Below are positions 3,649-29,300 of a DNA stretch of 43,314 nt, in pieces. Made by a program: the position numbers and the translations under genes. Below the pieces are notes generated by a model. It did no database searches and had not been told where the DNA came from. It was given only the letters and a program-made list of their open reading frames with translations. Numbering within the stretch: the stretch's first letter is position 1; each line of letters opens with the position of its first letter. This stretch comes from a virus. The stretch is taken from positions 1-43,314 of IMG/VR virus record IMGVR_UViG_2713897325_000001; one strand, 5' to 3'.

Positions 3649-3672
3649 AGCGAACCTTAGCGGGCAGGTGCT

Positions 3673-3696: not shown

Positions 3697-3719
3697 TCAC
3701 TAAATTCTGAGGTGATCAG

Positions 3720-5530: not shown

Positions 5531-5538
5531 GAGCGCCC

Positions 5539-7483: not shown

Positions 7484-8100
7484 CTGATTACACGGTGCTG
7501 CCGCCAAATGCTTCTGTCGTGGAGCGCGGCCTCGATCTGGCGTTTGGCAGGCTGCTCGACCGGATAGAGCCGCCGTTCCCCGATCTGATGGACCCACTTA
7601 AAACCCCGGTTGATTTTCTGCCCTACCTGGCTGCTGATCGCGGCGTAACGGAATGGAATAGCGCGGCGCCCGAGGCTGAGAAGCGGCTCACGGTCGCGCT
7701 GGCCTGGCCGACCAAGCGCCTGGCCGGCACGCGCAGGGCGCTCGAGAACGCGATTCTTGGGTTGCAACTGACGCCCGATGTAACCGCCTGGTATGAGCAG
7801 ACGCCCCTCGGTCAGCCGTACACATTTACCGTTCGTGCGTTCGCCGATAAGCCGTACAGCGAAGAGATCAACGCGCGGCTTGATCGGCGGATTGGTGAGG
7901 CGAAAAGCGAAAGGGACGTGCTTGCGGTTTCAATCGGTTTAAGCGTCTCCGGGACTCATTACGTAGGCGCCGCGACGGTAGGCGGCGAGCTAACCACAAT
8001 CTATCCGTTTGAGCTTGAAGGGCTCGATGTGTCGTCGCCTCTGTACATGGCTGCTGGCCTGTATTCGGTTGAAAAGACAACCCTTCGTCCGCTGGAGTGA
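7480..8100 (+). CDS. Tail protein I (P2 gpI family)
   Basis: The N-terminus VLPPNASVVERGLDLAFGRLL...LMDPLKTPVDFLPYLAADRGV..W matches the P2 gpI signature. Confidence 0.85.
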   Translation: MTDYTVLPPNASVVERGLDLAFGRLLDRIEPPFPDLMDPLKTPVDFLPYLAADRGVTEWNSAAPEAEKRLTVALAWPTKRLAGTRRALENAILGLQLTPDVTAWYEQTPLGQPYTFTVRAFADKPYSEEINARLDRRIGEAKSERDVLAVSIGLSVSGTHYVGAATVGGELTTIYPFELEGLDVSSPLYMAAGLYSVEKTTLRPLE

Positions 8101-10367: not shown

Positions 10368-10375
10368 GTTAAAAC

Positions 10376-10912
10376 ATGTCCAAAGTATTAAGCGCTCGCA
10401 ACCCGCACTGGTCGACCCCGGCTCGCACTACCATCGAACTGATGGTGGCTTTCGAGGGGATGGTCGACGTTTATGGTGAATTGCCGTTCACGGCATCCCC
10501 TCACGACCCCGAGGCGCACGGCGTTGATCTGTACGAGCGAGCCCTTGCGGGTGAGTTCGGGCCGGTTCAAGACACGCCGCTTGAGCTGGTGCGCGTGCAG
10601 GTCATGTGCGCGCGCGGCGACCGCTCTGCGGCGGCGACCGCTCGCATTGATGCGCTGGTCAATCAGTACGAGGAGCTGCTCGACGCCGTAGCGCTGAATA
10701 TGGCGACCGATGCCCAGCTCGCGGCCATGCCTGCGCTCAAGGCTGAGATCGACGCACAGCGTCTGTATCGCGTGCAGCTCGGCCAGCTCGACACGAAGCC
10801 TGGCTACCCGCTGGAATTCGAATGGCCGGTGCCGCCTGCCGTTCCGTTCGTGTACGAACCGCCAGCGCCTGAAACTGCTGCAGAGACCGGCGAAACCGAG
10901 CAGAAAAAGTAA
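10376..10912 (+). CDS. Tail fibre assembly chaperone (P2 gpG-like)
   Basis: 178 aa immediately downstream of the fibre gene. The C-terminal segment LAAMPALKAEIDAQRLYRVQLGQLDTKPGYPLEFEWPVPP fits the W..YR..L......WP..P pattern of tail-fibre assembly proteins. Confidence 0.75.
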   Translation: MSKVLSARNPHWSTPARTTIELMVAFEGMVDVYGELPFTASPHDPEAHGVDLYERALAGEFGPVQDTPLELVRVQVMCARGDRSAAATARIDALVNQYEELLDAVALNMATDAQLAAMPALKAEIDAQRLYRVQLGQLDTKPGYPLEFEWPVPPAVPFVYEPPAPETAAETGETEQKK

Positions 10913-10945
10913 CCGCTTCGCCCCCTTCATCTGACAACCCCCAAG

Positions 10946-10967
10946 AGCCGCACTGCGGCTTTTTTTG
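10946..10967 (+). terminator. Rho-independent terminator after the fibre module
   Basis: AGCCGCA-c-TGCGGCT stem followed by TTTTTTGT. Confidence 0.7.
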
Positions 10968-10985
10968 TGCCTGGAGATTCACGCA

Positions 10986-11198
10986 ATGGCCGACACCCTG
11001 CGCCAGAAATACACCGTATTGGTTCCGTTCCCGAAAGGCGGTGGCCACTACTCCCGCAAAGGCGAGGAGCTCGAGCTCCTCGACGTTCAAGCGCAGCAGC
11101 TCGAGGCCGCTGGCCGTATCAAGCTGACTGCTGAGATCGCCGCCGAGGCCGCGTCTGCTGCTCAGACGGCCAAGAAACCCACTGTAAAGGCTGACTAA
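10986..11198 (+). CDS. Small hypothetical protein preceding the sheath gene
   Basis: ATG 10986 with a GGAG about 10 nt upstream; the track's 10965 start is a GTG inside the terminator T-tract. 70 aa. It occupies the position of the small gp38-like (DUF2635-type) proteins that precede sheath genes in some myoviruses, but that similarity is weak. Confidence 0.5.
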   Translation: MADTLRQKYTVLVPFPKGGGHYSRKGEELELLDVQAQQLEAAGRIKLTAEIAAEAASAAQTAKKPTVKAD

Positions 11199-11201
11199 GC
11201 A

Positions 11202-12371
11202 ATGGCAGAAGTAACGAATTTCGAGCACAACGGCGTCACGTTCAATATCACCGAGTCGCCGGACCCTATGGGCGCTCTCGGCCAGAACGTAATTGGCCTG
11301 GTAGGCACTGCGCCAAACGCCGGTCTGGGCATTCCGCTCAATTCCCCGTTTCGCATCAGCAGTGACGGCGCGGCCAACCTGCTGGACCCTACGGGCACCG
11401 AGGCCGGTACGCTGTATCTGGTCGTGAAAAACATCCTCAAGGTCGTGAAGTGCCCGATCTACGTCGTTGTCGTCGAGAAGGGCGCTACGGCGGCCGACAC
11501 GCTCAACAATGTGTTGGGCGGCGTAGACGTGGCGTCGGGTCAGATCACGGGTATCGCGGCGCTGGCTACCGCGCCCGAGGTGCCGACGATCATCGGTGCG
11601 CCTGGCTTCTCGGATCAGCAGGCGGTTTACAGCGAGTTGGCCAGCTTGGCCAAGCGCATCTTTTGCCGCGCGGTCTGTGACGGCAAGGACGTAACCGTTG
11701 CTGATCAGGTCAAGAACAGCCAGGCAATCGGTGGTGCTGACGTCGGCTATGACCGCTGCTACTTCGTTCACCAGATGCCCGCCGTTTATTCGAAGGCGGC
11801 AAAAGGGAACGTATTCCTGCCGCCGTCGAGCCTGGCTATCGCGGCGCTGGCCGCCGTTAAGCCGTGGGAGAGCCCCGGCAATCAGGTCACCTACGCTGCG
11901 GACGTCTCGCGCGTCGTCGAGTACAACATTCTCGACAAGGCTACCGAAGGCGACCTGCTGAACCGCTACGGCTTCGGCTATTACGCGCGCACCACGATGG
12001 GCGGTTTCTCCCTGATCGGTAACCGAACCATTACCGGCAAGTTCATCAGTTACGTCGGGCTCGAGGATGCGCTCGCCCGTAAGTTGATGGCCGCTGCGCA
12101 GATCGTCATGTCGCGCAACCTGACCATGTCGTTCATGAAACAGGAAGTCGAAAAAATCGACGCCTGGCTGCAGACGCTGGTCGCTGACGAAACCATTCCG
12201 GGCGGCAGCGTGTACCTCGATCCCGATTTGAACAGTGCTGAGCACTACAAAAACGGCACCTGGTACATCGTGGTCGACTACGGCCGCTACGCCCCGAACG
12301 AGCACATGGTCTACAAGCTGAACGCTAGTGACTCGATCATCGAAGAATTCCTGAACGAGGTGTTGAAGTAA
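11202..12371 (+). CDS. Contractile tail sheath protein (P2 FI family)
   Basis: 389 aa with a typical FI-like N-terminus (GV.FN..ES......G..VIGLVGTAP) and C-terminal domain, followed by a coupled tube gene. Confidence 0.9.
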   Translation: MAEVTNFEHNGVTFNITESPDPMGALGQNVIGLVGTAPNAGLGIPLNSPFRISSDGAANLLDPTGTEAGTLYLVVKNILKVVKCPIYVVVVEKGATAADTLNNVLGGVDVASGQITGIAALATAPEVPTIIGAPGFSDQQAVYSELASLAKRIFCRAVCDGKDVTVADQVKNSQAIGGADVGYDRCYFVHQMPAVYSKAAKGNVFLPPSSLAIAALAAVKPWESPGNQVTYAADVSRVVEYNILDKATEGDLLNRYGFGYYARTTMGGFSLIGNRTITGKFISYVGLEDALARKLMAAAQIVMSRNLTMSFMKQEVEKIDAWLQTLVADETIPGGSVYLDPDLNSAEHYKNGTWYIVVDYGRYAPNEHMVYKLNASDSIIEEFLNEVLK

Positions 12372-12877
12372 TGTTTACGAACCGTGTAAGGCAGGTTATT
12401 ACCGCCACGCTCCAGGGTTTCCCGCTGATGGCCACCATCGACGAGTTTGATCCGCCTCCGATCGAATTCGAAATGGAAGGCATGCGCGGCGGCCGCTTTC
12501 TCGAGGAAGAGCAGGCGACCGGCATGAAGGCCATGACGGCGAAGATCACGCTGCAGGGCGTTGGTCTGCCGATCTTTCTGGCGATGGGCGCGACGCAGGG
12601 TCAGACGGTGTCTCTGACGGTCAACGAGGCCGGTGTCGATCAGGACGATAACGAGTGGTTCGCGAACCATATCTGCATCGGCAAGCTGAAAAAGATCGAA
12701 GAGAAAACGGTCAAAATGAAAGACAAGCCGGTCACCGTTATGGAGATCGCGCTGCGCATCTACAAGCGCCTTGAGTCGGGCGTTACCGTTGTCGATGTTG
12801 ATACCCGCACACAGCGAATCATCATCAACGGCGACGACATTCTGAAAGGCTCTCGCCGCTTGGCCCTGATGGCCTAA
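12371..12877 (+). CDS. Tail tube protein (P2 FII family)
   Basis: 168 aa with a TAATG start overlap with the sheath gene. Segments FDPPPIEFEMEGMRGGRF, LQGVG and VDVDTRTQRIIINGDD parallel P2 FII. Confidence 0.88.
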   Translation: MFTNRVRQVITATLQGFPLMATIDEFDPPPIEFEMEGMRGGRFLEEEQATGMKAMTAKITLQGVGLPIFLAMGATQGQTVSLTVNEAGVDQDDNEWFANHICIGKLKKIEEKTVKMKDKPVTVMEIALRIYKRLESGVTVVDVDTRTQRIIINGDDILKGSRRLALMA

Positions 12878-12892
12878 CCGCCCCACTTTTAA

Positions 12893-12917
12893 AGCCGCCT
12901 CCGGGCGGCTTTTTGTT
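12893..12917 (+). terminator. Rho-independent terminator after the tube gene
   Basis: AGCCGCC-tccg-GGCGGCT stem followed by TTTTGTTG. Confidence 0.7.
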
Positions 12918-12934
12918 GCTCAAGGAAAAGTAAA

Positions 12935-13555
12935 ATGACCGCTCCGACTACCAAAAAGCCCCGCGCCAAAAGCCGCAAGCCTTGGGTAATGCCCACGCAT
13001 AAGCTGTGCTTTCCGATCACTGTCGACGCCGACGAAGGCGGCGAGTCGACGATCACTGAGATCGTGCTGCGCCCTTTCAGCGTGATCGAGCACCGCAAGG
13101 CGCTGGCCACGGTGAGCGATGACGTCGAGGCGCAGTTTGAGGCCCTTCTCGCACTGGCTACCGGCTATGACGAGGACGTGATCGACAAGATCAAGCGGCC
13201 TGACTTCGTGTCCCTCGGCGCGATCCTGAACGACTACATCAAGCTTCCCGCAAGTTTCTATCTGGAACGGTTGCCAGAAGATCCAGACGTCGTACCGTTG
13301 CTGGTTCCGATAAAGGGTGTGATGGGTCAGATCACCAGTTTGACGCTCGAGGTTCCGGCGCTCAAAGCGACGAAGATCATGCAGAAAATGAAGGGTGATT
13401 ATGAGCCTGCCGACTTCATCAGCGCGCACTGTGCCGGCCTGAGCGTGACCGAGATCCACATGCTGAGCTGCCCGGACTGGACGCAGCTACAGGAACGGGT
13501 GGACAGTTTTTTAAACAAACCGGCGGACTACTTTCAGACCGCGACATCGAAGTAA
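12935..13555 (+). CDS. Tail assembly chaperone (P2 gpE-like), apparently two tandem chaperone domains
   Basis: AAGGAAAAG Shine-Dalgarno. It lies between the tube and tape-measure genes. The two halves (about residues 20-105 and 115-195) both follow the gpE-type pattern (short beta segment ITEIVLRP / ITSLTLEVP ... tG....i..l...D......f). Confidence 0.75.
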   Translation: MTAPTTKKPRAKSRKPWVMPTHKLCFPITVDADEGGESTITEIVLRPFSVIEHRKALATVSDDVEAQFEALLALATGYDEDVIDKIKRPDFVSLGAILNDYIKLPASFYLERLPEDPDVVPLLVPIKGVMGQITSLTLEVPALKATKIMQKMKGDYEPADFISAHCAGLSVTEIHMLSCPDWTQLQERVDSFLNKPADYFQTATSK

Positions 13556-13677
13556 TACTCGATGTGGTTCCGCTGGTGTACCACGTCAGCGAGTCCGAGA
13601 TTCTGGAGTGGGACGCCGAAAAAGCGATGCGTCGGTATGAGCTGGCCATCGCTCGGCTGGGCGCTAAAAAAGGTTAA
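12935..13677 (+). CDS. Tail chaperone E+E' fusion made by a -1 programmed frameshift at 13507-13513
   Basis: The zero-frame codons AGT TTT TTA contain the slippery heptamer T TTT TTA. The -1 frame is open from there to TAA 13675-13677. It encodes ...KQTGGLLSDRDIEVILDVVPLVYHVSESEILEWDAEKAMRRYELAIARLGAKKG, which resembles the conserved P2 gpE' extension. Confidence 0.7.
13507..13513 (+). promoter_or_regulatory. -1 ribosomal frameshift slippery heptamer T TTT TTA
   Basis: An X XXY YYZ motif in the correct phase (codon phase verified from ATG 12935) near the 3' end of the gpE-like gene, upstream of the tape measure gene. Confidence 0.7.
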
Positions 13678-13687
13678 GGGGTGAGCT

Positions 13688-16600
13688 GTGGCAGAACAGA
13701 AATATTCGCTGCGGCTGGCCGCCGTTGATGCGTACACCAGCACGTTCGGGGACTTCTCGAAAAAGACGGCCAAAATCAACGAAGGCATGCGTGAGCAGCG
13801 GGCCGAGATCGACCGGCTTAACCGCGCCGCGCGATCGGCGGATGGTTTCGACAAGCTGTCGGAAAAGGTCGTCAAGACGAAGGCCGCGCTGCAGGCTGCT
13901 CGCCTCGAGCAGAACCGTCTCGGTCGCGAGCAGAAAGCGGCCGCTGTGAAAGTTCAAGAGCTCAACCAGCAGCACGCCGAGGCGAGCGCAAGGCTGAGCA
14001 AACTGTCGGCCTCGAGTCAGGCGAGCACCGCGCAGATCCGCGCCGCTCGAGTTGAGACGACGCGCCTTGCGCGGGATCTCAAAAGCGCGTCGGCCGACAT
14101 GGGCAAGCTCGATACAGCGCAGGACAAGGCCTCGGCCAGCGTCAAGACGTTGAGCGCTGCGCAGCGGGCCGAACGCAACGAGCTCAAGAGTCTGCAGAGC
14201 GCGTTAAAGGGTGCAGGCGTCGACACCGGCAAGCTCGCCAGTGAGCAGAAGCGGCTCAAGACTGAGACTGCGGCCGCGAACAACGCTCTGCAGGCCCAGC
14301 AGGCGAAGCTCAAGGCTGTGCAGGGCGCTCAGTCGAAGATTGACGGCAACCGGGGCAAGCGCGCGGAGTTGCGCGGGCAGATGGTCGAGACGGCGGCGAT
14401 GGCTTATGTCGCAACTCGGCCGATCAACCATGCGATGGATATGCAGACGTCGATGGCTGACGTCGGCAAGGTGATCAACTTCGGCGAGGGTGAGCGCGAG
14501 GCGATGGCCTCGGCCAACTTGAAGCTGGCCAGCGACCGGATGATCGCCTCGTCGGGTATGACCGCGATCGATCTCGCAAAGATCGAGTACGCGGCCGGCC
14601 AGTCGGGCATTGGTAACGATGTCAAAAACAAAGACGGCACGGTCGACCAGAAGGGTAAGCAAGCCGCGATCATGGATTTCACGCGCGACGCGGCGATCAT
14701 GGGTGCTGCATTCGATATCGGTGCGCAGGAAGCCGGCGAAACTATGGCGGGCTGGCGGGCGTCGATGAACCTGAACCGGGCGCAAACGCTCGATCTGGCC
14801 GACTCGACGAACTATCTCGGCAACAGTTTCAACGCTACGGCCTCTGACATTGCGTCTGTCGTGAAACGTTACGGTGCCGTGGGCAAGGCTTCGGGTATGT
14901 CGCCGGAGCAGACAGCGGCGCTCTCGGCGGCCTTCCTCAACCCCGGCACGGAAAAGGAAATCGCCGGTACTGGCTTCAAAAACTTCACTGCAGCGCTGAC
15001 CAAAGGCCAGGCCGCGACCAAGGGGCAAAAGGAAGCCTGGAAGGATCTCGGCTTTGATCCGGTCGACCTGTCGCGAGACATGCAGAAAAACGCGCCTGAC
15101 ACGATCATGCGCGTTTTGAAGGCGATCAAGCAGCAGCCAGTCGCAGAACAGGCCGCCGTGGCCACTGAGCTTTTCGGTTCGGAATCCATCGGTGCAATTC
15201 AACCGCTGCTGCAGAACCTTGGCGAGGTGCAGCGCGCGTTCGACATGGTCAAGGATAAGAGCAAGTACGCGACGTCAGCACTCGGCGCGAATGGCTCGAT
15301 GATGCAGGAAGCGGCCGGCGTGGCGAATACGTCGCGCACCGGCTGGAATAGCTTCACGGCGCGTCTGACGCGTCTGTCTACCGTTATCGGCACCGCAATG
15401 CTGCCCGCTGTCGATGCAGTGCTTGCGCCGTTGGGTAAGGTCGTCGACATGATCGCGGACGCGGCCGAGGCTTTTCCGGGCGTGACGTCGGCGATCGCAA
15501 TTGGTGTCGCCGGCCTGGTCGCGGCGAAGGTTGCAATAACAGGTCTTAAATTCGGCGGGCTATTGCTTGGCCAGGGTCTGAACAAGGGCGGGCTGTTGCG
15601 TGCGAAGCTCGGCGGCGCCGGCAGTCCTGATCGCACTGCTGCGTCGGCCGATCGCGCAAGCAAGGCTGTGGCCAGGCTCAATTCGAACCTTGACCGGCTC
15701 GGTGGCCAGCGAGGCGCTGGTGGGCCTCGCATCACGCCGCGTGCGGCAGGTGCTGCGCGTACTGCCGGCGCGGCGAATCGGTCAACGCGACGTCGTGAGA
15801 GTCGTGCGGCTCGGGCTGCAGTCAGACGTTCGGCTCGCAGTCCGGCCGCACGTATTACGCCGGTAGTGTCGCCAACGCCAGCACCGGCGCCGGCCGCTGG
15901 GTCTCGCTTTGCGGGCTCCAGGGCGAGGATAGCTGCAGCGGCGGCCGCCACTACAGCGGCTGCGGCTGCTGGGTCCGCTATGGCGTCTGGCGGCTCGTCT
16001 ATCGGGTTTTCTGGTGCAGGTCACGTCAGCGCAAGGGGTGGGCTTCCTGCGGCCCCTGACGCGCTTATCCGGCCTGCAGCGGCTTCTGCTGCTGCAGCTC
16101 CGGTGGTGCGGCTTGTTGCACCTGGTGCATCTGGTGCGCCAGGCGCGACGTCGGTCGTCCAGGCCGCGCGCCAGGCTGCTCCGATTGCGACGAGTGCTGC
16201 ACCTGCCGCAATTGCTGCAGCAGCTCCAGTCGCGAGCCAAGCGGCGTCGACCATGTCGGCGGCTATCGATCCTGTGGCGAGCGAAGCTGCAGCGGTGACG
16301 GCTGCGGCGGTGAAGGCTGACCCACCTGCGTGGGTCGGCGCTGTTGAGACGCTGGCCGAGTCGTGGCCAGCCGCCGACGATGAGCCTGGGCACGATCCTG
16401 CAGGCGGCCCGCCTGGTGGCCCGCATCCGCCCGGTGGGCGCCGTGCGAAGCTGAAAAGGATGGGCAAAAAGGGTGCTGCAGCGCTTATGCAGGCGGCGCC
16501 AGCGCTGCTCTCTGCGGGCATGAGTCAGGCCGGTGACGAGGGATCAAGCACGGCCGAGGTGGGCGCTTCTGTCGGGTCGGCCGGTGGCTCTATGGCCGGC

Positions 16601-17002
16601 GCATGGGCTGGCGCGCAGTTGGGCGCCACGATCGGTACGTTTATTTTGCCTGGTGTGGGGACTGCCATCGGCGGCGCCCTGGGCGGCTTGGCGGGCGGGT
16701 TTGCGGGCGGCGAGGTCGGCGACTGGCTCGGCGACAAGATTGGCGGATGGTTCAGCGAAGACAAGTTGAGTCCTCCCGATCAGGTCGCAAGCGACCTGGC
16801 TGCGGGCGGGATCTCGGAGTCAAAAAACACGACGTTTGCGCCGAGTATCACGATTCAGCCGAGCGGTGATCCGGCTTATGACAAGGGCATGGCGGATAAA
16901 ATCATGGAGCGAATCAGGGCTGAGTTTCAGTCGATGATGCTTGGCGGCGACTCGTCGCTCGGGCAGCGCCGTAGTTCTTCTTTGACCGATGGGGGTAGTT
17001 GA
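13688..17002 (+). CDS. Tail tape measure protein
   Basis: 1104 aa with a GTG start preceded by AAGGGG. The N-terminal third is coiled-coil, the central part is a TMP-like helical region, then come an Ala/Pro/Arg/Gly low-complexity block and a C-terminal glycine-zipper. It sits between the chaperone and gpU as in P2. Confidence 0.9.
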   Translation: MAEQKYSLRLAAVDAYTSTFGDFSKKTAKINEGMREQRAEIDRLNRAARSADGFDKLSEKVVKTKAALQAARLEQNRLGREQKAAAVKVQELNQQHAEASARLSKLSASSQASTAQIRAARVETTRLARDLKSASADMGKLDTAQDKASASVKTLSAAQRAERNELKSLQSALKGAGVDTGKLASEQKRLKTETAAANNALQAQQAKLKAVQGAQSKIDGNRGKRAELRGQMVETAAMAYVATRPINHAMDMQTSMADVGKVINFGEGEREAMASANLKLASDRMIASSGMTAIDLAKIEYAAGQSGIGNDVKNKDGTVDQKGKQAAIMDFTRDAAIMGAAFDIGAQEAGETMAGWRASMNLNRAQTLDLADSTNYLGNSFNATASDIASVVKRYGAVGKASGMSPEQTAALSAAFLNPGTEKEIAGTGFKNFTAALTKGQAATKGQKEAWKDLGFDPVDLSRDMQKNAPDTIMRVLKAIKQQPVAEQAAVATELFGSESIGAIQPLLQNLGEVQRAFDMVKDKSKYATSALGANGSMMQEAAGVANTSRTGWNSFTARLTRLSTVIGTAMLPAVDAVLAPLGKVVDMIADAAEAFPGVTSAIAIGVAGLVAAKVAITGLKFGGLLLGQGLNKGGLLRAKLGGAGSPDRTAASADRASKAVARLNSNLDRLGGQRGAGGPRITPRAAGAARTAGAANRSTRRRESRAARAAVRRSARSPAARITPVVSPTPAPAPAAGSRFAGSRARIAAAAAATTAAAAAGSAMASGGSSIGFSGAGHVSARGGLPAAPDALIRPAAASAAAAPVVRLVAPGASGAPGATSVVQAARQAAPIATSAAPAAIAAAAPVASQAASTMSAAIDPVASEAAAVTAAAVKADPPAWVGAVETLAESWPAADDEPGHDPAGGPPGGPHPPGGRRAKLKRMGKKGAAALMQAAPALLSAGMSQAGDEGSSTAEVGASVGSAGGSMAGAWAGAQLGATIGTFILPGVGTAIGGALGGLAGGFAGGEVGDWLGDKIGGWFSEDKLSPPDQVASDLAAGGISESKNTTFAPSITIQPSGDPAYDKGMADKIMERIRAEFQSMMLGGDSSLGQRRSSSLTDGGS

Positions 17003-17379
17003 TGTCGCAGCAAATGGCGCTCGGGGAGTTCGTGTTCGGCCTGTCGAGCGATTTCCCCTATGACACGCTCGATCGCAAGACGACGGGCGGATGGGTCAGT
17101 CTGGATATCATCAGCAGCAAGCCGCGCTCACACCAGACCGGGCAGGGCCTCGAGACTCTGCGCCTGCAGGGGAAAGCGCAATGGGCTGCAGGAATGGCCC
17201 GCGTTGAGGCTTTGCGCTCGATGGCGAACGCGCGGGTGCCTTACATGCTCGTCGACGGCATCGGCCGTGTGTGGGGGCGCTGGCGTATCAACTCGGTCGA
17301 CGAGTCGCAGAAACGCACTGTGGACGACGGGACCGCGACTCTGCTCGAGTGGACGCTCGAGCTTGAGGAATTTTTCTGA
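17002..17379 (+). CDS. Tail protein U (P2 gpU family)
   Basis: ATG 17002 overlaps the TMP stop (TGATG); an alternative TTG start is at 16999. MSQQMALGEFVFG...LRLQG......G......L..M......Y.LVDG.G...G.W.I.SV.E parallels P2 gpU. Confidence 0.85.
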   Translation: MSQQMALGEFVFGLSSDFPYDTLDRKTTGGWVSLDIISSKPRSHQTGQGLETLRLQGKAQWAAGMARVEALRSMANARVPYMLVDGIGRVWGRWRINSVDESQKRTVDDGTATLLEWTLELEEFF

Positions 17380-17591
17380 TGCGCACAGTGCTTTCTATCG
17401 CAGGTGATACCGCAAACATCCTGCTCTATCGCGAGACGGGCAGGTCTGACGACGAGGCCGAGGCTGCTTTCTGGCTTTTGAATCCGGGCCTCGCTGAGCA
17501 TGGGGCCGCTCTGCCGTCAGGCGTGCGGGTAAACCTGCCGGAGCTCGACAAAAAGCCGGCCGTTTCTACACGCGCCAGCGCCTGGGATTAA
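17379..17591 (+). CDS. Tail protein X (P2 gpX family)
   Basis: 70 aa with a TGATG start overlap. GDTANILLYRETGRSDDEAEAAFWLLNPGLAEHGAALPSGVRVNLPE fits the gpX pattern. Confidence 0.8.
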   Translation: MRTVLSIAGDTANILLYRETGRSDDEAEAAFWLLNPGLAEHGAALPSGVRVNLPELDKKPAVSTRASAWD

Positions 17592-17601
17592 TGGGGGAGT
17601 T

Positions 17602-18615
17602 ATGACGCTTGGATTTACGCCGCTTGTCCGCGTGACGGGCGCAAATGCGGATCTGATAAATTCGCGCCTGGTCGACTGGGAGCACGTCGACGCTGCAGGT
17701 ATCGAATCGGATTCGCTAAAGCTGACGATCAACATTGAGGGCCTCGACGGTTTGCCGAGCCCGGACGGGAAAATCGGGCTGCAGGTTGGGTATGCAGAGA
17801 CAGGGCTCGTCGACGTCGGCGAGTTCACGATTAAGGACACGAAGCCCCAGCTATTCCCGGCCCTGCTGACCATCGTCGCCACGGCCGCGCCGTTCAAGGT
17901 GGCCGACGATACGAAGTTCAAAGAGCGTCGGTCGGCTTCCTACGGTCCGACCACGCTTGGCGCAGTCTTTCGAGAGCTCACGGGAAAGCACGGATTCTCC
18001 CCGCGAATTTCGCCTGAGTTGGATGCGCTGGTTATCGACCACGTCGACCAGACGAACGAGACGGATATGGGGTTTCTGACCCGGATATCTGACAAGTACG
18101 ACGCTGTTACGAAACCGGTCAATGACCTGTATGTCATGGGGCGCCGGGGCGAGCTCAAGTCGCTGTCGGGCAAGGCGGCGCCGACCGTGGTCCTTTCGGT
18201 CACGAAGGGCGCCAGGCCCGACGAGCGATCGTTTATCAATGCCACGCTCGACGAGAATAGCCGCGTCAAGTTCAAGGGCTGCAAAACGACCTGGTGGGAT
18301 GGCGCCAAGGCCGAAGAGTGTACGGTTGAGACGGGCACGGAGCCGTTCAAGCGTGACCGCCAGCGCTATCAGAACGAGGCCGAGGCAAAGGCTGCGGGTG
18401 AGGGCGCGTCGCGCAAGCTCAAGCGCGAGTCAAGGCAGGTCACAATTGACTGTCCGGGTAACCCGCTGCTGCAGGCCGAGGGTGTTGTCATTCTCGACGG
18501 CACTTGGCCGTCGTACATGCAAGGCGCCTGGTCTATCGACAAGGCCACGGCCTCGGGCTCGCGCCAGCAAAGTTACCGCTGCCGGGTCGTTGCAACCCTT
18601 CCTGTTGACGATTGA
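17602..18615 (+). CDS. Tail / late control protein D (P2 gpD family)
   Basis: 337 aa with a GGGGAG Shine-Dalgarno. It is the last gene of the U-X-D block as in P2, with a gpD-like sequence (SDSLKLTI....G......G....L..GY...G). Confidence 0.85.
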   Translation: MTLGFTPLVRVTGANADLINSRLVDWEHVDAAGIESDSLKLTINIEGLDGLPSPDGKIGLQVGYAETGLVDVGEFTIKDTKPQLFPALLTIVATAAPFKVADDTKFKERRSASYGPTTLGAVFRELTGKHGFSPRISPELDALVIDHVDQTNETDMGFLTRISDKYDAVTKPVNDLYVMGRRGELKSLSGKAAPTVVLSVTKGARPDERSFINATLDENSRVKFKGCKTTWWDGAKAEECTVETGTEPFKRDRQRYQNEAEAKAAGEGASRKLKRESRQVTIDCPGNPLLQAEGVVILDGTWPSYMQGAWSIDKATASGSRQQSYRCRVVATLPVDD

Positions 18616-18654
18616 AAAAGCCCCCACTGCCTAACGGCGGTGGGGGCTTTTTTT
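18615..18654. terminator. Bidirectional rho-independent terminator between convergent operons
   Basis: AAAAA-GCCCCCAC-(tgcctaacggcg)-GTGGGGGC-TTTTTTT. The A-run and T-run flanks let it function on both strands. Confidence 0.8.
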
Positions 18655-18665
18655 CGTTTCTGGCG

Positions 18666-19025
18666 TTACTGCGCGAACAGCTCGTCCGGCATGGTGGGCG
18701 GGTTCTGGTAGTCGGTCATTACGTTCGGTAGGTTCTGCAGGTCTACGCCGGTGCCCATACGGTTTATGACTTCCATTGCGGCACCATTGCCGGCTACCCA
18801 CATATCGCCGCGCTTGAGCCAGGCGCTGGCCGGCGCGTCGTTGGCCTTGTAGCGGCATGCGCCCCAGCGGCGCCCGTCGACTTTCTCGATCGAGCAGTTG
18901 ACCTTTAGGCCGACGCGATCGTTTACGCGCTCGAGCGCGTTGGCGTCTTTGTTGACCAGATCGTTTATGAATATCGCGAGTAGTGCTACAGCGGCGGCGC
19001 CGATGAGCAGGTGCTTGGCTTTCAT
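18666..19025 (-). CDS. Small signal-anchored/secreted hypothetical protein (moron-like)
   Basis: I chose the ATG preceded by AAGGAG (MKAKHLLIGAAAVALLAIF...) over the longer 19067 start. It has an N-terminal hydrophobic signal or anchor and two Cys residues, with no lipobox. Terminators flank it on both sides. Confidence 0.65.
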   Translation of the reverse strand: MKAKHLLIGAAAVALLAIFINDLVNKDANALERVNDRVGLKVNCSIEKVDGRRWGACRYKANDAPASAWLKRGDMWVAGNGAAMEVINRMGTGVDLQNLPNVMTDYQNPPTMPDELFAQ

Positions 19026-19065
19026 GCTGCGCGGATCTCCTTTTGGTTGAGGCGCGCAGGGTAGC

Positions 19066-19091
19066 AAAAAGCCCGCTGGGGCGGCGGGCTT
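19066..19091 (-). terminator. Rho-independent terminator after the methyltransferase gene
   Basis: On the - strand: GCCCGC-cgcccca-GCGGGC followed by TTTTTG. Confidence 0.6.
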
Positions 19092-19098
19092 GTGGGGT

Positions 19099-20022
19099 TT
19101 ATGCGGAAAGTTGAACTGCTCGGATGACTTGGTCGGCTGCTTTGGGCGGTACGGCGTTGCCGGCCATATGCACTGTTAGGCGATGATTATCCGGTCGGCG
19201 GGTGTCGGCCGGGAATGTCATGGCCTGTAGTACCTCGTCGGCGCTGACCATTCGCATCCTGTCGCCGTCGACCAGCGCCCAGCGATCGCGGGTTGTGATG
19301 GTTCCAATCGGCCGTTCGAGGCATCGCCCGGTCAGGCCTGAGCCTTTCCCGTAGTAGGGCATGATGAAGCGCTCGCCAAAACTCTTTCTGCCGTTCTCTA
19401 CGCGGCGCAGAGTAGCCTCGGCGCGCCCTGGGCGGATGATGGGTGACCACTTGCCGGCGTTGAAGTCTAGGAAGCTGGACGCGGGTACGTGCTGGTGTCT
19501 TGGGATCTGCAGCATTAGCGGGGCCTTGCTGCGAGTGCATACGAGAAATAATCGAACGCGGTGTTGCGGCACGCCGAGGTCGGCGCAGTCGAGAATGTGT
19601 GGTGCCAGTTGATATCCAAGCGCCCGCATCGCTTGCGACCACGCCGGGTAAAGTGTCCATCGGGTGAACTCGGGGACGTTTTCAATTATGGCTATTTCTG
19701 GTTTGTGGAACTCGAGCGCCGAGACTACAGCCCACGCGGTCGACCGTGATGCGTCGTGCTGGGGGTTGCCTGCTGTTTTTCCGCGAGCTCGAGTGTGGCC
19801 TTGGCAGCATGGAGCGGCCAGAAGCATGTCGTGGGCGGGAACCTTTGACCAGTCAGCCTGGTGCAGGTCTTGGCACACATGCATTGCTTGAGGGTGGTTT
19901 GCGGTGTGCCATTCGACAGCGGTCGGCCAGTGATTTGCAGCCCATAGGACTTCTACTCCTGCCATTTTTGCGCCTGACGTCCAGCCCCCGAGGCCTGCAA
20001 ACAAATCGACGGCGGTTGTCAT
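19099..20022 (-). CDS. DNA (cytosine-5)-methyltransferase, orphan
   Basis: Motif I DLFAGLGG; motif IV APCCQGHT (a variant of GPPCQxFS); motif VI IIENVPEF; motif VIII QHRVRLF; motif X AGNAVPP. I chose the ATG preceded by GGGGAG (MTTAVDLFAG...). The track's longer start at 20076 has no Shine-Dalgarno. Confidence 0.85.
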   Translation of the reverse strand: MTTAVDLFAGLGGWTSGAKMAGVEVLWAANHWPTAVEWHTANHPQAMHVCQDLHQADWSKVPAHDMLLAAPCCQGHTRARGKTAGNPQHDASRSTAWAVVSALEFHKPEIAIIENVPEFTRWTLYPAWSQAMRALGYQLAPHILDCADLGVPQHRVRLFLVCTRSKAPLMLQIPRHQHVPASSFLDFNAGKWSPIIRPGRAEATLRRVENGRKSFGERFIMPYYGKGSGLTGRCLERPIGTITTRDRWALVDGDRMRMVSADEVLQAMTFPADTRRPDNHRLTVHMAGNAVPPKAADQVIRAVQLSA

Positions 20023-20174
20023 GCTGATGGCTCCCCTATCATTCGTAGGAAGCCGTTCCAGGCGATCAGGCTGCATTCGCGTGAGAGATATGCCTCAACA
20101 AGCGCACGGTTTGCTGGGTCTGCTGCTTCGCGCAGGCTGAGGCCGCGCGCTGTGGTATAGTCCTTTTTGGACAT
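20019..20174 (-). CDS. 51-aa hypothetical ORF translationally coupled (ATGA) to the methyltransferase
   Basis: Hand translation gives MSKKDYTTARGLSLREAADPANRALVEAYLSRECSLIAWNGFLRMIGEPSA. A GGGGA Shine-Dalgarno lies 6 nt upstream, and the stop overlaps the methylase ATG. It is too short to appear in the ORF track. Confidence 0.45.
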   Translation of the reverse strand: MSKKDYTTARGLSLREAADPANRALVEAYLSRECSLIAWNGFLRMIGEPSA

Positions 20175-20240: not shown

Positions 20241-20552
20241 TCACTTCAGTGATTCCAGTCGGCGACGCAATTCCTCCTTATCCTCGACTTCGAAATGCCC
20301 CTTTCCTTGCTCGTACTTTTTGAACAGGTCGTCTAGCGCTTCAATGATCAGATATTTGACCGGAACGTTATCGGCCGACATGCTTTTTATGTCGTTCGTG
20401 CCCCGGTGATACCTGACCGGCACGATAGCTTTTAGCTGCTTCTCCTCGGTTGACTCGGTGATCACTGCGCGCCGAGCCTTTTCGACGTGTGGCTCAACTG
20501 GTGCTGCTGGCCCGCGCCCTGGGCGGGTTGTGCTGAGTGCCGTCTCTTTCAT
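20241..20552 (-). CDS. Small partition partner of ParA, putative ribbon-helix-helix centromere-binding protein (ParG-like)
   Basis: 103 aa with an ATGA overlap onto the parA stop. A disordered N-terminus is followed by LKAIVPVRY (beta), HRGTNDIKSMSADN (helix 1) and VKYLIIEALDDLFKKYE (helix 2), as in type Ib CBPs such as ParG. Confidence 0.6.
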   Translation of the reverse strand: MKETALSTTRPGRGPAAPVEPHVEKARRAVITESTEEKQLKAIVPVRYHRGTNDIKSMSADNVPVKYLIIEALDDLFKKYEQGKGHFEVEDKEELRRRLESLK

Positions 20553-21196
20553 TTGTCGAGCTCCATAAGTTCAAGCGTAAGCGCTTCGATTTCTAGGCGC
20601 GCCTCGTCGTCAGCGGCCAGATCCATGACGCTGTTGCCTTGCGCGATTCCCTTTCCATACGCAACGCGCTGGTGCGTCTGTGTTGTTGTGAGAGGTAGTT
20701 CGTAGTTGAGCAGTGCCTTCTGCGCGTCGCGCTCGAGGATGGTCCCTGCGATGGCTCTGGCGATCATTAGCACGGCCTTTGGCGTGCCGCCTGTAACTTC
20801 CTGTCGGTCCTTTACCAGTTGGACCATATCGGCGGTCGCCCAAATGTCGTACTGGCTTGGCTGCACGGGAATGATCACCAGGTCGGACACTTTTACAGCG
20901 TCGGACGTCAGCGTACTTATCTGCGGGATGCCGTCGATTATTACGTAGTCGTATCCGCTCGATATCCTCGGTAGGTCGCGTTTCAGTGTCTCCCGCATGA
21001 TCACGCAGGGGATCAGTGTCGCGGTGTCTGCGCGGGACGTAGCCCAGTCGGTTGCGGAGCCTTGGCGGCCGTCGAGGTCAACGAGAAGCACGCTCTTTTT
21101 GTGCTTGTCGGCCAGGCAGCAGGCGACGTTCGTTGCGGTCGTCGTCTTGGTCGTGCCGCCTTTTTGGTTCTGAATTGTCCAGATTCTTGCTGCCAT
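20549..21196 (-). CDS. parA: Partition ATPase ParA, type Ib (small, no N-terminal HTH)
   Basis: 215 aa with the deviant Walker A motif IQNQKGGTTKTTTATNVA, plus LLVDLDGRQGS and IIDGIP motifs. GAGG Shine-Dalgarno 8 nt upstream. Confidence 0.9.
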   Translation of the reverse strand: MAARIWTIQNQKGGTTKTTTATNVACCLADKHKKSVLLVDLDGRQGSATDWATSRADTATLIPCVIMRETLKRDLPRISSGYDYVIIDGIPQISTLTSDAVKVSDLVIIPVQPSQYDIWATADMVQLVKDRQEVTGGTPKAVLMIARAIAGTILERDAQKALLNYELPLTTTQTHQRVAYGKGIAQGNSVMDLAADDEARLEIEALTLELMELDK

Positions 21197-21280: not shown

Positions 21281-21591
21281 ACAAGCAGCGCGAAGCGCCA
21301 TCCTTTAAAGCGACCTTGTCCCTGCGGCGGGCGTCGTCCTTTCTCAATGTGCCCGAAAGCCCCTGCAGATGGGGCTTGCACGCCCTATGCATCCTAGTAA
21401 GGACCGCGCCGGTCCTTTGGGCGTATGTCCCTTCAAGCCCCTCTCTGGCCTTGGCCGACCTTACAGCTTTCCATTTCCTATTTTCTGTCGCCGAAAGGCA
21501 TTACCAGACCAAGGGGCACTATGACATAGGGTCATTGGTGTATGTCATTCACCCCTAACCCATTCCCACATACATCCAAAGCCCAAGCCCA

Positions 21592-21637
21592 GCATGCACC
21601 CCTTGCCCTTGCGCAAGCAAGGGTCAGGGGTGCATGC
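21592..21637. repeat. Secondary imperfect palindrome flanking the axis (mirror of 21678..21723)
   Basis: GCATGCACCCCTGACCCTTGC / GCAAGGGCAAGGGGTGCATGC arms of 21 nt with 2 mismatches, around the CTTGCGCAAG core. Contains the palindrome GTGCATGCAC. Confidence 0.7.
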
Positions 21638-21644
21638 ACTGTGT

Positions 21645-21670
21645 CCCCATTCTATACGTATAGAATGGGG
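21645..21670. other. Palindrome axis: putative protelomerase target / hairpin telomere core
   Basis: CCCCATTCTATAC|GTATAGAATGGGG. The CTATACGTATAG centre flanked by ATGG is, as I recall them, like the phiHAP-1/VP882 (..CATACTATACGTATAGTATG..) and N15 (CCATTATACGCGCGTATAATGG) tel sites. Confidence 0.6.
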
Positions 21671-21677
21671 ACACAGT

Positions 21678-21723
21678 GCATGCACCCCTGACCCTTGCTT
21701 GCGCAAGGGCAAGGGGTGCATGC
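21678..21723. repeat. Secondary imperfect palindrome flanking the axis
   Basis: 21-nt arms at 21678-21698 and 21703-21723 with 2 mismatches and loop TTGC. GGGGTGCATGC recurs as GGGGTGAATG at about 21761. Confidence 0.7.
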
Positions 21724-22034
21724 TGGGCTTGGGCTTTGGATGTATGTGGGAATGGGTTAGGGGTGAATGACATACACCAATGACCCTATGTCATAGTGCC
21801 CCTTGGTCTGGTAATGCCTTTCGGCGACAGAAAATAGGAAATGGAAAGCTGTAAGGTCGGCCAAGGCCAGAGAGGGGCTTGAAGGGACATACGCCCAAAG
21901 GACCGGCGCGGTCCTTACTAGGATGCATAGGGCGTGCAAGCCCCATCTGCAGGGGCTTTCGGGCACATTGAGAAAGGACGACGCCCGCCGCAGGGACAAG
22001 GTCGCTTTAAAGGATGGCGCTTCGCGCTGCTTGT

Positions 22035-25936: not shown

Positions 25937-26313
25937 CAGAAAAATTCCTCAAGCTCGAGCGTCCACTCGAGCAGAGTCGCGGTCCCGTCGTCCACAGTGC
26001 GTTTCTGCGACTCGTCGACCGAGTTGATACGCCAGCGCCCCCACACACGGCCGATGCCGTCGACGAGCATGTAAGGCACCCGCGCGTTCGCCATCGAGCG
26101 CAAAGCCTCAACGCGGGCCATTCCTGCAGCCCATTGCGCTTTCCCCTGCAGGCGCAGAGTCTCGAGGCCCTGCCCGGTCTGGTGTGAGCGCGGCTTGCTG
26201 CTGATGATATCCAGACTGACCCATCCGCCCGTCGTCTTGCGATCGAGCGTGTCATAGGGGAAATCGCTCGACAGGCCGAACACGAACTCCCCGAGCGCCA
26301 TTTGCTGCGACAT
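25936..26313 (-). CDS. Tail protein U (arm 2 copy)
   Basis: Exact mirror of 17002..17379. Confidence 0.85.
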   Translation of the reverse strand: MSQQMALGEFVFGLSSDFPYDTLDRKTTGGWVSLDIISSKPRSHQTGQGLETLRLQGKAQWAAGMARVEALRSMANARVPYMLVDGIGRVWGRWRINSVDESQKRTVDDGTATLLEWTLELEEFF

Positions 26314-29300
26314 CAACTACCCCCATCGGTCAAAGAAGAACTACGGCGCTGCCCGAGCGACGAGTCGCCGCCAAGCATCATCGACTGAAACTCAGCCCTG
26401 ATTCGCTCCATGATTTTATCCGCCATGCCCTTGTCATAAGCCGGATCACCGCTCGGCTGAATCGTGATACTCGGCGCAAACGTCGTGTTTTTTGACTCCG
26501 AGATCCCGCCCGCAGCCAGGTCGCTTGCGACCTGATCGGGAGGACTCAACTTGTCTTCGCTGAACCATCCGCCAATCTTGTCGCCGAGCCAGTCGCCGAC
26601 CTCGCCGCCCGCAAACCCGCCCGCCAAGCCGCCCAGGGCGCCGCCGATGGCAGTCCCCACACCAGGCAAAATAAACGTACCGATCGTGGCGCCCAACTGC
26701 GCGCCAGCCCATGCGCCGGCCATAGAGCCACCGGCCGACCCGACAGAAGCGCCCACCTCGGCCGTGCTTGATCCCTCGTCACCGGCCTGACTCATGCCCG
26801 CAGAGAGCAGCGCTGGCGCCGCCTGCATAAGCGCTGCAGCACCCTTTTTGCCCATCCTTTTCAGCTTCGCACGGCGCCCACCGGGCGGATGCGGGCCACC
26901 AGGCGGGCCGCCTGCAGGATCGTGCCCAGGCTCATCGTCGGCGGCTGGCCACGACTCGGCCAGCGTCTCAACAGCGCCGACCCACGCAGGTGGGTCAGCC
27001 TTCACCGCCGCAGCCGTCACCGCTGCAGCTTCGCTCGCCACAGGATCGATAGCCGCCGACATGGTCGACGCCGCTTGGCTCGCGACTGGAGCTGCTGCAG
27101 CAATTGCGGCAGGTGCAGCACTCGTCGCAATCGGAGCAGCCTGGCGCGCGGCCTGGACGACCGACGTCGCGCCTGGCGCACCAGATGCACCAGGTGCAAC
27201 AAGCCGCACCACCGGAGCTGCAGCAGCAGAAGCCGCTGCAGGCCGGATAAGCGCGTCAGGGGCCGCAGGAAGCCCACCCCTTGCGCTGACGTGACCTGCA
27301 CCAGAAAACCCGATAGACGAGCCGCCAGACGCCATAGCGGACCCAGCAGCCGCAGCCGCTGTAGTGGCGGCCGCCGCTGCAGCTATCCTCGCCCTGGAGC
27401 CCGCAAAGCGAGACCCAGCGGCCGGCGCCGGTGCTGGCGTTGGCGACACTACCGGCGTAATACGTGCGGCCGGACTGCGAGCCGAACGTCTGACTGCAGC
27501 CCGAGCCGCACGACTCTCACGACGTCGCGTTGACCGATTCGCCGCGCCGGCAGTACGCGCAGCACCTGCCGCACGCGGCGTGATGCGAGGCCCACCAGCG
27601 CCTCGCTGGCCACCGAGCCGGTCAAGGTTCGAATTGAGCCTGGCCACAGCCTTGCTTGCGCGATCGGCCGACGCAGCAGTGCGATCAGGACTGCCGGCGC
27701 CGCCGAGCTTCGCACGCAACAGCCCGCCCTTGTTCAGACCCTGGCCAAGCAATAGCCCGCCGAATTTAAGACCTGTTATTGCAACCTTCGCCGCGACCAG
27801 GCCGGCGACACCAATTGCGATCGCCGACGTCACGCCCGGAAAAGCCTCGGCCGCGTCCGCGATCATGTCGACGACCTTACCCAACGGCGCAAGCACTGCA
27901 TCGACAGCGGGCAGCATTGCGGTGCCGATAACGGTAGACAGACGCGTCAGACGCGCCGTGAAGCTATTCCAGCCGGTGCGCGACGTATTCGCCACGCCGG
28001 CCGCTTCCTGCATCATCGAGCCATTCGCGCCGAGTGCTGACGTCGCGTACTTGCTCTTATCCTTGACCATGTCGAACGCGCGCTGCACCTCGCCAAGGTT
28101 CTGCAGCAGCGGTTGAATTGCACCGATGGATTCCGAACCGAAAAGCTCAGTGGCCACGGCGGCCTGTTCTGCGACTGGCTGCTGCTTGATCGCCTTCAAA
28201 ACGCGCATGATCGTGTCAGGCGCGTTTTTCTGCATGTCTCGCGACAGGTCGACCGGATCAAAGCCGAGATCCTTCCAGGCTTCCTTTTGCCCCTTGGTCG
28301 CGGCCTGGCCTTTGGTCAGCGCTGCAGTGAAGTTTTTGAAGCCAGTACCGGCGATTTCCTTTTCCGTGCCGGGGTTGAGGAAGGCCGCCGAGAGCGCCGC
28401 TGTCTGCTCCGGCGACATACCCGAAGCCTTGCCCACGGCACCGTAACGTTTCACGACAGACGCAATGTCAGAGGCCGTAGCGTTGAAACTGTTGCCGAGA
28501 TAGTTCGTCGAGTCGGCCAGATCGAGCGTTTGCGCCCGGTTCAGGTTCATCGACGCCCGCCAGCCCGCCATAGTTTCGCCGGCTTCCTGCGCACCGATAT
28601 CGAATGCAGCACCCATGATCGCCGCGTCGCGCGTGAAATCCATGATCGCGGCTTGCTTACCCTTCTGGTCGACCGTGCCGTCTTTGTTTTTGACATCGTT
28701 ACCAATGCCCGACTGGCCGGCCGCGTACTCGATCTTTGCGAGATCGATCGCGGTCATACCCGACGAGGCGATCATCCGGTCGCTGGCCAGCTTCAAGTTG
28801 GCCGAGGCCATCGCCTCGCGCTCACCCTCGCCGAAGTTGATCACCTTGCCGACGTCAGCCATCGACGTCTGCATATCCATCGCATGGTTGATCGGCCGAG
28901 TTGCGACATAAGCCATCGCCGCCGTCTCGACCATCTGCCCGCGCAACTCCGCGCGCTTGCCCCGGTTGCCGTCAATCTTCGACTGAGCGCCCTGCACAGC
29001 CTTGAGCTTCGCCTGCTGGGCCTGCAGAGCGTTGTTCGCGGCCGCAGTCTCAGTCTTGAGCCGCTTCTGCTCACTGGCGAGCTTGCCGGTGTCGACGCCT
29101 GCACCCTTTAACGCGCTCTGCAGACTCTTGAGCTCGTTGCGTTCGGCCCGCTGCGCAGCGCTCAACGTCTTGACGCTGGCCGAGGCCTTGTCCTGCGCTG
29201 TATCGAGCTTGCCCATGTCGGCCGACGCGCTTTTGAGATCCCGCGCAAGGCGCGTCGTCTCAACTCGAGCGGCGCGGATCTGCGCGGTGCTCGCCTGACT

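Follow-up and report, generated by a model that had tools for sequence, protein, structure and literature searches.

A predicted protelomerase target site of the phiHAP-1/VP882 kind at the axis of a self-complementary viral contig

The IMG/VR virus record IMGVR_UViG_2713897325_000001, analyzed here over its whole length of 43,314 nucleotides (nt) and referred to as the window, raises the question of what lies at its centre, where the original prediction had recognized a protelomerase target (tel site) resembling those of the phages phiHAP-1 and VP882. The whole window is its own reverse complement with 0 mismatches; each arm comprises 21,657 nt, and the exact midpoint falls on the axis 21657|21658 (the vertical bar marks the axis here and in the sequences below). 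This axis very probably represents the tel/telRL half-site centre of a phiHAP-1/VP882-like myovirus, which would persist in its host, most probably a Pseudomonas, as a hairpin-ended linear plasmid prophage. The sequence at the axis, its position, the synteny of the arm and a family-wide architecture, all observed directly, carry this reading.

The tel core and its place in a family of related sites

The centre of the window reads ...GGGGTGCATGCACTGTGTCCCCATTCTATAC|GTATAGAATGGGGACACAGTGCATGCACCCC..., as had been quoted, and contains the 24-bp tel core CCCATTCTATAC|GTATAGAATGGG at positions 21646-21669, with the dyad axis and the predicted hairpin tip at 21657|21658. Centred on this axis, the sequence conforms to CCCAT(A/T)CTATAC|GTATAG(T/A)ATGGG, the ATTC variant of which is common to many family members. 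Read outward from the axis, the window agrees with phiHAP-1 at 11/12 positions of the half-core and at 20/26 over a longer stretch, and with VP882 at 11/12 and 14/30, respectively. The two reference phages compared with each other give 12/12 and then 15/26 over the longer stretch, which places the window (20/26) nearer to phiHAP-1 than VP882 is (15/26). Within the window, a half-core match of the phiHAP-1/VP882 type occurs at the axis only and nowhere else. The chance of such a match at one fixed position is ~2e-6 for the 12-mer and ~4e-8 for the 26-mer, and this single-position estimate applies because the fold-back point is one fixed position. The assignment to a target of the phiHAP-1/VP882 kind is thereby supported by the half-core, together with the position beside parA, the synteny and the family context described below.

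The phiHAP-1 (Hapunavirus HAP1) tel site, taken from the GenBank annotation and secondary citations, is an annotated repeat_region (26850-26948, centre 26904|26905) located between the divergent parA and protelomerase genes, and comprises a 90-bp palindrome on ...CCCATACTATAC|GTATAGTATGGG... with CTGTGCATAC close by. VP882 carries the identical 24-bp core (26180-26203) but lacks CTGTGCATAC; the sites named in the original prediction are thus correct as to the core in both records, and of these two phages only phiHAP-1 has the neighbouring element. The core of the window differs from that of phiHAP-1 once per half (ATTC for ATAC), having T instead of A at position 7, a variant found in about half of the family. 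GTGCAT lies at the same offset in both, GGGC...TGTATG-type repeats flank the site on both sides in either phage, and both phages are myoviruses with the same gene order. Unlike phiHAP-1, the window has a flanking motif of the GGGGTGCATG type rather than the CTATGTATG type, a spacer from parA to the axis of 461 nt (287 nt in phiHAP-1) and a host that is probably Pseudomonas rather than Halomonas, and it comprises one arm only. VP882 shares the layout of parA, tel site and protelomerase gene, but outside the core it is little alike, and its natural palindrome is perfect for 2 x 12 nt.

Against N15, 8-9/12 of the first nucleotides and 10-12/30 of the longer stretch agree. The N15 core, read in the record as CCCATTATACGC|GCGTATAATGG with an annotated cut at 24802/3, therefore bears only a modest form of the likeness that had been proposed for it. 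N15 resembles the window in mechanism class, in its layout of sopA/parA-like gene, telRL and telN, in a CCCATT...AATGGG equally far from the axis, and in an inner motif within the palindrome accompanied by degenerate outer copies over ~310 bp. The two differ in central sequence (TACGCGCGTA against CTATACGTATAG), and their repeat sequences are unrelated; N15 is a siphovirus whose protelomerase is no more than a distant relative. Comparison with PY54 gave 7/12 of the first nucleotides and 13/30 of the longer stretch, and that with VP58.5 gave 6/12 and 11/30. Of the alignments that had been suggested as a check, those with phiHAP-1 and VP882 thus bore the relation out at 11/12 per half-core each, and the VHML/VP58.5 site proved unrelated.

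No sequence relationship links the tel site of Vhmlvirus with that of Hapunavirus, though ParA and its partner are common to both groups. A VHML-type axis in GGTGTA|TACACC, a 12-mer equal to the sub-palindrome of the window's family, was considered and ruled out; in MAR and VP58.5 the centre reads GTCTAA|TTAGAC. The VHML record (locus L005, NC_004456.1) begins and ends at TACACCTGTG..., ~14 nt short of the dyad centre when set against loci L003 and L004 (2377-2464 in each). The deposited VHML "terminal repeats" are without hairpin tips because the record stops ~14 nt before the GTCTAA|TTAGAC centre.

In the window, the sub-palindrome GGTGCATGCACT is located at 21629-21640, 18-29 nt from the axis, with its mirror at 21675-21686 and the family consensus GGTGYATRCACC. 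On either side of the axis, members of the window's sub-family have it at this same offset.

Position and synteny point to the same group. Between the head-tail joining gene and parA, all 24 open reading frames (ORFs) compared follow the gene order of phiHAP-1 and VP882 (35-63% amino acid identity), both of them myoviruses, to which the original prediction had likened the contractile tail encoded here, and the collinear myovirus module is followed by partition genes adjoining the telomere, as is characteristic of the group. The parA gene (20549-21196, minus strand; 215 amino acids) is transcribed away from the axis and separated from it by 461 nt, ~460 nt of which are non-coding DNA. The best phage homologues of ParA are those of the telomere myoviruses phiHAP-1, vB_VpaM_MAR, VP882, VP58.5 and VHML (47-50% amino acid identity), and ParA is 92-94% identical to that of the related loci L029, L031 and L037.

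Scanning of public collections with the core pattern CCATNCTATACGTATAGNATGG returned stretches from IMG/VR (32), metagenomes (20) and isolate genomes of Pseudomonas, Stutzerimonas, Halomonas and Vreelandella (9), so that the core is present in 61 loci besides the window. Flanks permitting, every core sits between parA and a protelomerase gene, and in >25 relatives with intact sites the protelomerase gene occupies the far side of the site. In the close relative L031, the protelomerase combines catalytic and stirrup domains of the ResT/TelK type and shares 53% identity with phiHAP-1 Tel. The order is likewise parA or a parA-like gene, tel site and protelomerase gene in VP882 and N15, and a left arm with virion and partition genes, followed by telRL and then by telN with replication and regulatory genes, has been described for such phages (PMC10612081). 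In HMP1, a 120-bp inverted repeat lies between parA and telN (PMC9170930). Each half of the intact sites is a perfect palindrome for ~12-46 nt and an approximate one for ~40-60 nt, beyond which the arms differ; the similarity of the window to these relatives ends ~37 nt past the axis. The other arm of the relatives carries the protelomerase, a RepA-type replication protein, a repressor, Q and lysis genes. With its parA arm and without a protelomerase gene, the window looks as one arm of a resolved linear prophage should.

Several Pseudomonas records share the ATTC-variant core, namely the phage-plasmids pSTW0522-72-1 (NZ_AP022474.1), P. aeruginosa pPHPALO418 (CP075795.1) and P. corrugata pPcorr-B21-055 as well as the Pseudomonas sp. 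isolate contigs UWFI01000345.1, UUCZ01000026.1 and UWFA01000197.1. These resemble the window in the motif array of the parA arm, in gene order and in a fold-back at the same axis; unlike the window, the plasmids were deposited as circular, with no annotation of the tel sites. A megablast search of the arm against the phage collection found no match, and protein and pattern searches were needed because the relatives are too divergent at the DNA level. A metagenome scan with a sub-family pattern matching the window's own site returned 0 matches, and none of the 20 metagenome loci found with the general core pattern represents the phage of the window.

The self-complementary contig and its origin

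Positions 1-21657 (plus strand) constitute the unique sequence of the window, the virion and partition ("left") arm of a Hapunavirus-like telomere phage, running from within the head-tail joining gene to the telomere. Positions 21658-43314 (minus strand) are an exact reverse-complement copy of this arm (0 mismatches over 21,657 nt) and add no further genome; they very probably are an assembly wrap-around through a hairpin or a replicated-telomere junction. The real information content of the contig is 21,657 nt, and the stated size is double. Since the whole window is a fold-back, neither its symmetry around the axis nor the "mirror" copy of the 46-nt palindrome described below is informative, and the extent of the native palindrome is unreadable from a sequence that is palindromic throughout; the evidence lies in the sequence of a single arm and in the point at which the fold-back falls.

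A hairpin-capped duplex is one continuous strand, and assemblies can therefore run round its tip. TelK cuts with a stagger of 6 bp. The central TACGTA hexamer of the window (21655-21660) is the predicted zone of staggered protelomerase cuts, by analogy with TelN and TelK, which act by staggered cuts, fold-back and rejoining (PMC10612081). Cleavage-joining at the axis is predicted from fold-backs that lie exactly at the core, both in the window and in many related assemblies. In the proposed mechanism, the protelomerase would be encoded on the other arm, outside the window; a dimer of the enzyme would bind the palindromic site and introduce staggered cuts around the central TACGTA, and each strand would be rejoined to its own complement to give two hairpin telomeres. 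The window would then represent the parA-proximal arm read up to the hairpin and back down the complementary strand, yielding a palindrome of 2 x 21,657 nt, and the source molecules may have been resolved hairpin ends or a replicated head-to-head (telLL) junction. A 16-nt motif, with an inner copy ~22-37 nt inside each half-site and outer copies reaching to ~130 nt, would provide accessory sites.

Fold-backs at the same axis recur among the relatives. Many related contigs stop 15-92 nt past it as perfect or near-perfect fold-backs (441 nt in L006), and six contigs of ~36-39 kb have the core at both ends. The P. monteilii record pSTW0522-72-1 (L071 and L072), listed in RefSeq and PLSDB as "circular" with 79,236 bp, contains each gene twice in mirror order under the same protein accession. 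Its two axes lie after bases 39259 and 78876, between the parA copies (with a perfect arm of 36,555 nt) and between the protelomerase copies, and the record is a complete twofold (2N) walk round a ~39.6-kb linear hairpin-ended prophage. The query finds matches at 2-3 places in each of several other Pseudomonas "plasmids" of 75-77 kb (NZ_CP115281.1, NZ_CP096940.1, NZ_CP102178.1), which probably represent the same 2N artefact. In the 95.8-kb scaffold ML178810.1 of Pseudomonas sp. HS-2 (L039, L040, L044), the cores adjoin runs of N, with the parA arm ending and the tel arm starting at the core; the scaffold was apparently built from contigs that had broken at the telomere. In Borrelia, long-read assemblies contain inverse duplications of 5-18 kb centred on the hairpin tip (bioRxiv 10.1101/2025.07.18.665644). 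As in these terminal duplications, the assembly of the window rounds a closed end and returns; unlike them, the duplication spans the entire contig and is base-perfect, which suggests a graph path or polishing rather than a raw long-read consensus.

Some points weigh against a resolved telomere at the axis. The physical hairpin, the enzyme, the cut positions and the protein binding the motif are deduced from relatives. Searching the window by tblastn with the phiHAP-1 and L031 enzymes gave noise only at E<=10, a result that is to be expected if the protelomerase gene lies on the other arm. The cognate protelomerase and the other arm of this phage were not found in the collections searched, and the native telRL is consequently unseen. 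One paper reports that Illumina libraries of Borrelia are without coverage of the hairpin wrap-arounds, and the symmetric palindrome with its 0 mismatches suggests a de Bruijn path, which an intact long palindrome could give without any hairpin molecules.

The axis is the tel-site centre whether the fold-back is a real molecule or a graph artefact. That a genuine tel site is present while the 21.7-kb fold-back is purely a de Bruijn artefact, formed at an intact telRL with a perfect palindrome of at least k nucleotides, appears distinctly improbable. The arms are base-identical and equal in length, as the same graph nodes would be, the palindromes of some relatives are perfect over 2 x 37-46 nt and could thus mislead an assembler at small k, many contigs do no more than break at the core, and the lack of Illumina coverage reported for Borrelia fits as well. 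Conversely, the intact telRL of a very close relative (L082) is a perfect palindrome for only 2 x 12 nt and asymmetric at positions 13-17 (GGAGA vs TACAT), yet the isolate contig L076, which has the same parA-side half, ends in a perfect 63-nt fold-back running through positions 13-17. The contig Ga0247725_1000346 (38,876 nt; L054, L063) starts with an intact telRL that is perfect over 37 nt and ends with a perfect parA-arm fold-back of 63 nt; as the two ends of this one contig differ, unresolved and resolved or replicated forms were both in the sample. Both cases argue for real resolved ends or telLL junctions having been sequenced in the family, rather than for graph ambiguity, and an unbranched fold-back of 21.7 kb implies that there was no competing tel-arm branch.

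A variant that leaves the tel-site assignment unchanged traces the fold-back to real head-to-head (telLL) duplex junctions in replication intermediates, and is considered possible, though less likely than not. Replication of N15-type prophages yields telLL and telRR junctions which are then resolved by the protelomerase (PMC12624138; PMC10612081). Such duplex junctions are ordinary substrates for short reads, folded hairpins are said to be poor ones, and short perfect fold-backs are common in the short-read assemblies of the family; long-read assemblies, on the other hand, clearly do pass round hairpins, and the two sources are indistinguishable by sequence alone. The notion that the palindrome is a random inverted chimera, produced by multiple-displacement amplification or a mis-join, with an axis of no biological meaning, is effectively refuted. 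Whole-contig perfect palindromes are a known class of artefact and the window lacks a protelomerase gene, but the axis falls, to the exact base, on the middle of the window's single tel core (P ~2e-6) and occupies the syntenic position beside parA, and dozens of independent assemblies fold back or break at this same axis.

The 46-nt palindrome and the flanking motif array

On each side of the axis lies a 46-nt imperfect palindrome (21592-21612/21617-21637, mirrored at 21678-21698/21703-21723), which consists of 21+4+21 nt with 90% complementarity and folds strongly as single-stranded DNA (z = -6.2). The original prediction had described it as a second palindrome reminiscent of the accessory inverted repeats of N15 tos. 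The palindrome itself is real, but it is not a free-standing element, and its mirror copy follows trivially from the fold-back: it is composed of one copy of the 16-nt motif (copy 1), directed inward within the tel half-site, and an inverted second copy directed outward. The parallel to tos holds in concept, given the mirror-polarity arrays found in relatives. Unlike in N15, the first outer copy of the window is inverted relative to the inner one, which creates the local 46-nt dyad. This arrangement is kept in the Pseudomonas relatives L038, L074, L076 and L082.

Altogether, an array of five ~16-nt copies (GGGYnnnGGrTGnATG) extends over 21529-21636, with its mirror array at 21679-21786. The copies are located at 21529-21544 (plus strand), 21546-21561 (minus), 21569-21584 (minus), 21593-21608 (minus) and 21621-21636 (plus), with centres ~121<, 105>, 82>, 57> and 29< nt from the axis (< denoting inward and > outward polarity). 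Matches to GGGYNNNGGRTGNATG number five per arm, all <130 nt from the axis, and none occurs elsewhere in the window; the count of 10 against 0.88 expected is partly circular because the pattern was derived from the same copies. An independent test was provided by 13 relatives with independent arm sequences, in which 88 matches lie within 160 nt of the axis (4.1 kb) against 9 in the other 120 kb, a ~290-fold enrichment. In these relatives, the motif is found on both arms with mirror polarity. The inner copy is centred ~29 nt out and points inward, and the outer copies point outward, those of the parA arm at ~57/81/104 nt and those of the tel arm at ~74/102/144 nt; a further inward copy at 108-121 nt is often present. 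The offsets and polarity in the window correspond to the parA-arm pattern of the relatives. In all family members, the inner copy is situated at a fixed offset inside the telRL palindrome.

The array therefore has the layout of a tos-like site, in which the resolvase palindrome contains the motif and degenerate flanking copies are arranged symmetrically about the axis. In N15, the 56-bp telRL holds L3/R3, and the degenerate repeats L1/L2/R1/R2 extend the natural target to ~310 bp (PMC12624138). TelN is thought to remain bound and to shield the N15 ends, and binding of the repeats by the protelomerase, with a role in resolution or protection, is stated merely as conceivable (PMC12624138). In PY54/P840, the flanking inverted repeat is dispensable in vivo, and accessory repeats thus need not be essential (PMC10612081). 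By analogy, the motif array most likely represents tos-like accessory sites, to which the protelomerase or a different protein of the telomere would bind and which may aid resolution, cap the end, or both; this role is favoured because the layout parallels that of N15.

A conserved block GGGCTTGACGTGTA...GGTCTATAAA (TTGACG, ~17 nt, TATAAA) precedes the protelomerase gene and shares part of its sequence with a motif copy. It was seen at L001:26995-27030 and in the tel-gene-side half-sites of L011, L032, L015 and L034, ~95-130 nt from the axis. The block looks like a tel promoter under iterated sites, which suggests that the protelomerase may be autoregulated.

Small ParA systems (type Ib par, e.g., TP228 parFGH) typically have iterated centromere repeats upstream of parA. 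The location of the array upstream of the operon of parA and the 103-aa (amino acid) gene behind it, together with this precedent, makes it conceivable, though in our judgement unlikely, that the 46-nt palindrome and the 16-nt motif are a partition centromere or operator bound by the 103-aa ParA partner. The motif is, however, found with mirror polarity on the two arms, and thus also in front of the protelomerase gene. All members have the innermost copy at a fixed offset within the telRL palindrome, and the promoter-like site of parA (21254-21227, minus strand) lies ~400 nt from the axis, away from the array. The analogous L/R repeats of N15 have been ascribed to TelN (PMC12624138). Similarly doubtful is a more far-reaching proposal, according to which the array would be a telomere-capping platform, with several protelomerases or a separate protein loaded per hairpin to counter an SbcCD-type nuclease and with autoregulation on the tel arm, or the 43-kb palindrome would reflect abundant unresolved head-to-head dimers in vivo. 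Accessory sites of the tos type remain the preferred assignment of the array.

Gene content, host and significance

On the plus strand, towards the axis, the arm encodes a myovirus structural module identified by PHROG and Pfam matches. In arm order, this comprises the C-terminus of a head-tail joining protein, the portal, a protease-capsid fusion and baseplate V/W/J/I, continued by tail fibre, sheath, tube, tape measure, gpU, gpX and gpD. The capsid ORF (1552-3648, plus strand; phrog_617, phrog_4523) begins with a prohead-protease domain (Peptidase_S78) at the N-terminus, to which a major capsid domain of the HK97 type is fused, as is also the case in phiHAP-1 and VP882. In the tail-fibre gene (8097-10367), BLAST of 9078-10078 against L074 gave staggered off-diagonal matches of 67-74% at offsets of ~340 and ~700 nt, which indicates putative diverged internal repeats; PHROG matches to this gene are also split into several stretches, and Tandem Repeats Finder reported nothing for it. 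The minus strand carries a C5 cytosine DNA methyltransferase (19099-20076), probably called from M19 (19099-20022), and a 103-aa gene (20241-20552; phrog_15913, unknown function) that overlaps the end of parA. The latter is kept downstream of parA in phiHAP-1 (41%), VP882 (39%) and VHML (42%), with an identical protein on 13 contigs, and likely encodes the ParA partner or a centromere-binding protein. A homologue search with the protelomerase fragment of L082 recovered proteins at <=69% identity only.

The Logan contig SRR8452650_232 (L075; 24,683 nt) is 100% identical to positions 1-11817 of the window, which it contains in single copy, and by this identity is the same phage. It runs 3 kb further, through the terminase genes, and its start, which may be cos, precedes the small terminase gene by ~250 nt. 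By arithmetic alone (24683 - 3011 = 21657 + 15, where 15 = (k-1)/2 for k=31), its end would fall 15 nt past the axis, a prediction weakened by the exact look-ups with the ParA, gpD, tube and methyltransferase (both starts) of the window, which returned no record. Pseudomonas isolate-series contigs share 98.9% identity with the window in the tail module and 93% in the parA-tel region. By comparison of window segments 1314-3693, 4130-19103 and 19103-20031 with L074 (UWFI01000345.1), they are judged to be mosaic relatives of the window, because portal to capsid is only ~66% identical and the methyltransferase cassette, which is present in L078 with one amino acid difference, is replaced in L074. 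Pseudomonas plasmids in PLSDB show 69-79% nucleotide identity over the parA-tel region. The host of the phage is probably Pseudomonas, and telomere phages related to VP882 and phiHAP-1 have already been reported in Pseudomonas and Stutzerimonas (PMC12042878; PMC12802170).

The doubling itself has consequences for public records. Any contig equal to its own reverse complement will trivially show "inverted terminal repeats" over its full length and could, we infer, be mis-scored as a complete genome. Doubled records lead to wrong gene counts, genome sizes and topology, and at least one "circular plasmid" of RefSeq and PLSDB (79 kb) is affected at full scale. What is added here is the recognition of the doubled contig, a family-wide site architecture and the finding of 2N artefact records in public plasmid databases.

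The axis is a further example of a known tel-site system. It adds to the phiHAP-1/VP882 group a well-defined tel site and, by extension, a presumed linear plasmid prophage from a Pseudomonas-type host. Across the ~60 sites compared, the family architecture consists of a 24-bp core that is constant apart from A or T at position 7, a spacer at positions 13-17 that varies and is often asymmetric, the GGTGYATRCACC sub-palindrome at 18-29, a GGCCC block and mirrored arrays of the 16-nt motif. It offers a ready design for minimal substrates and for tests of the accessory repeats. If the array did serve as a capping platform, it would amount to a bacterial "shelterin-like" arrangement, conserved across a large and environmentally widespread family of phage-plasmids.

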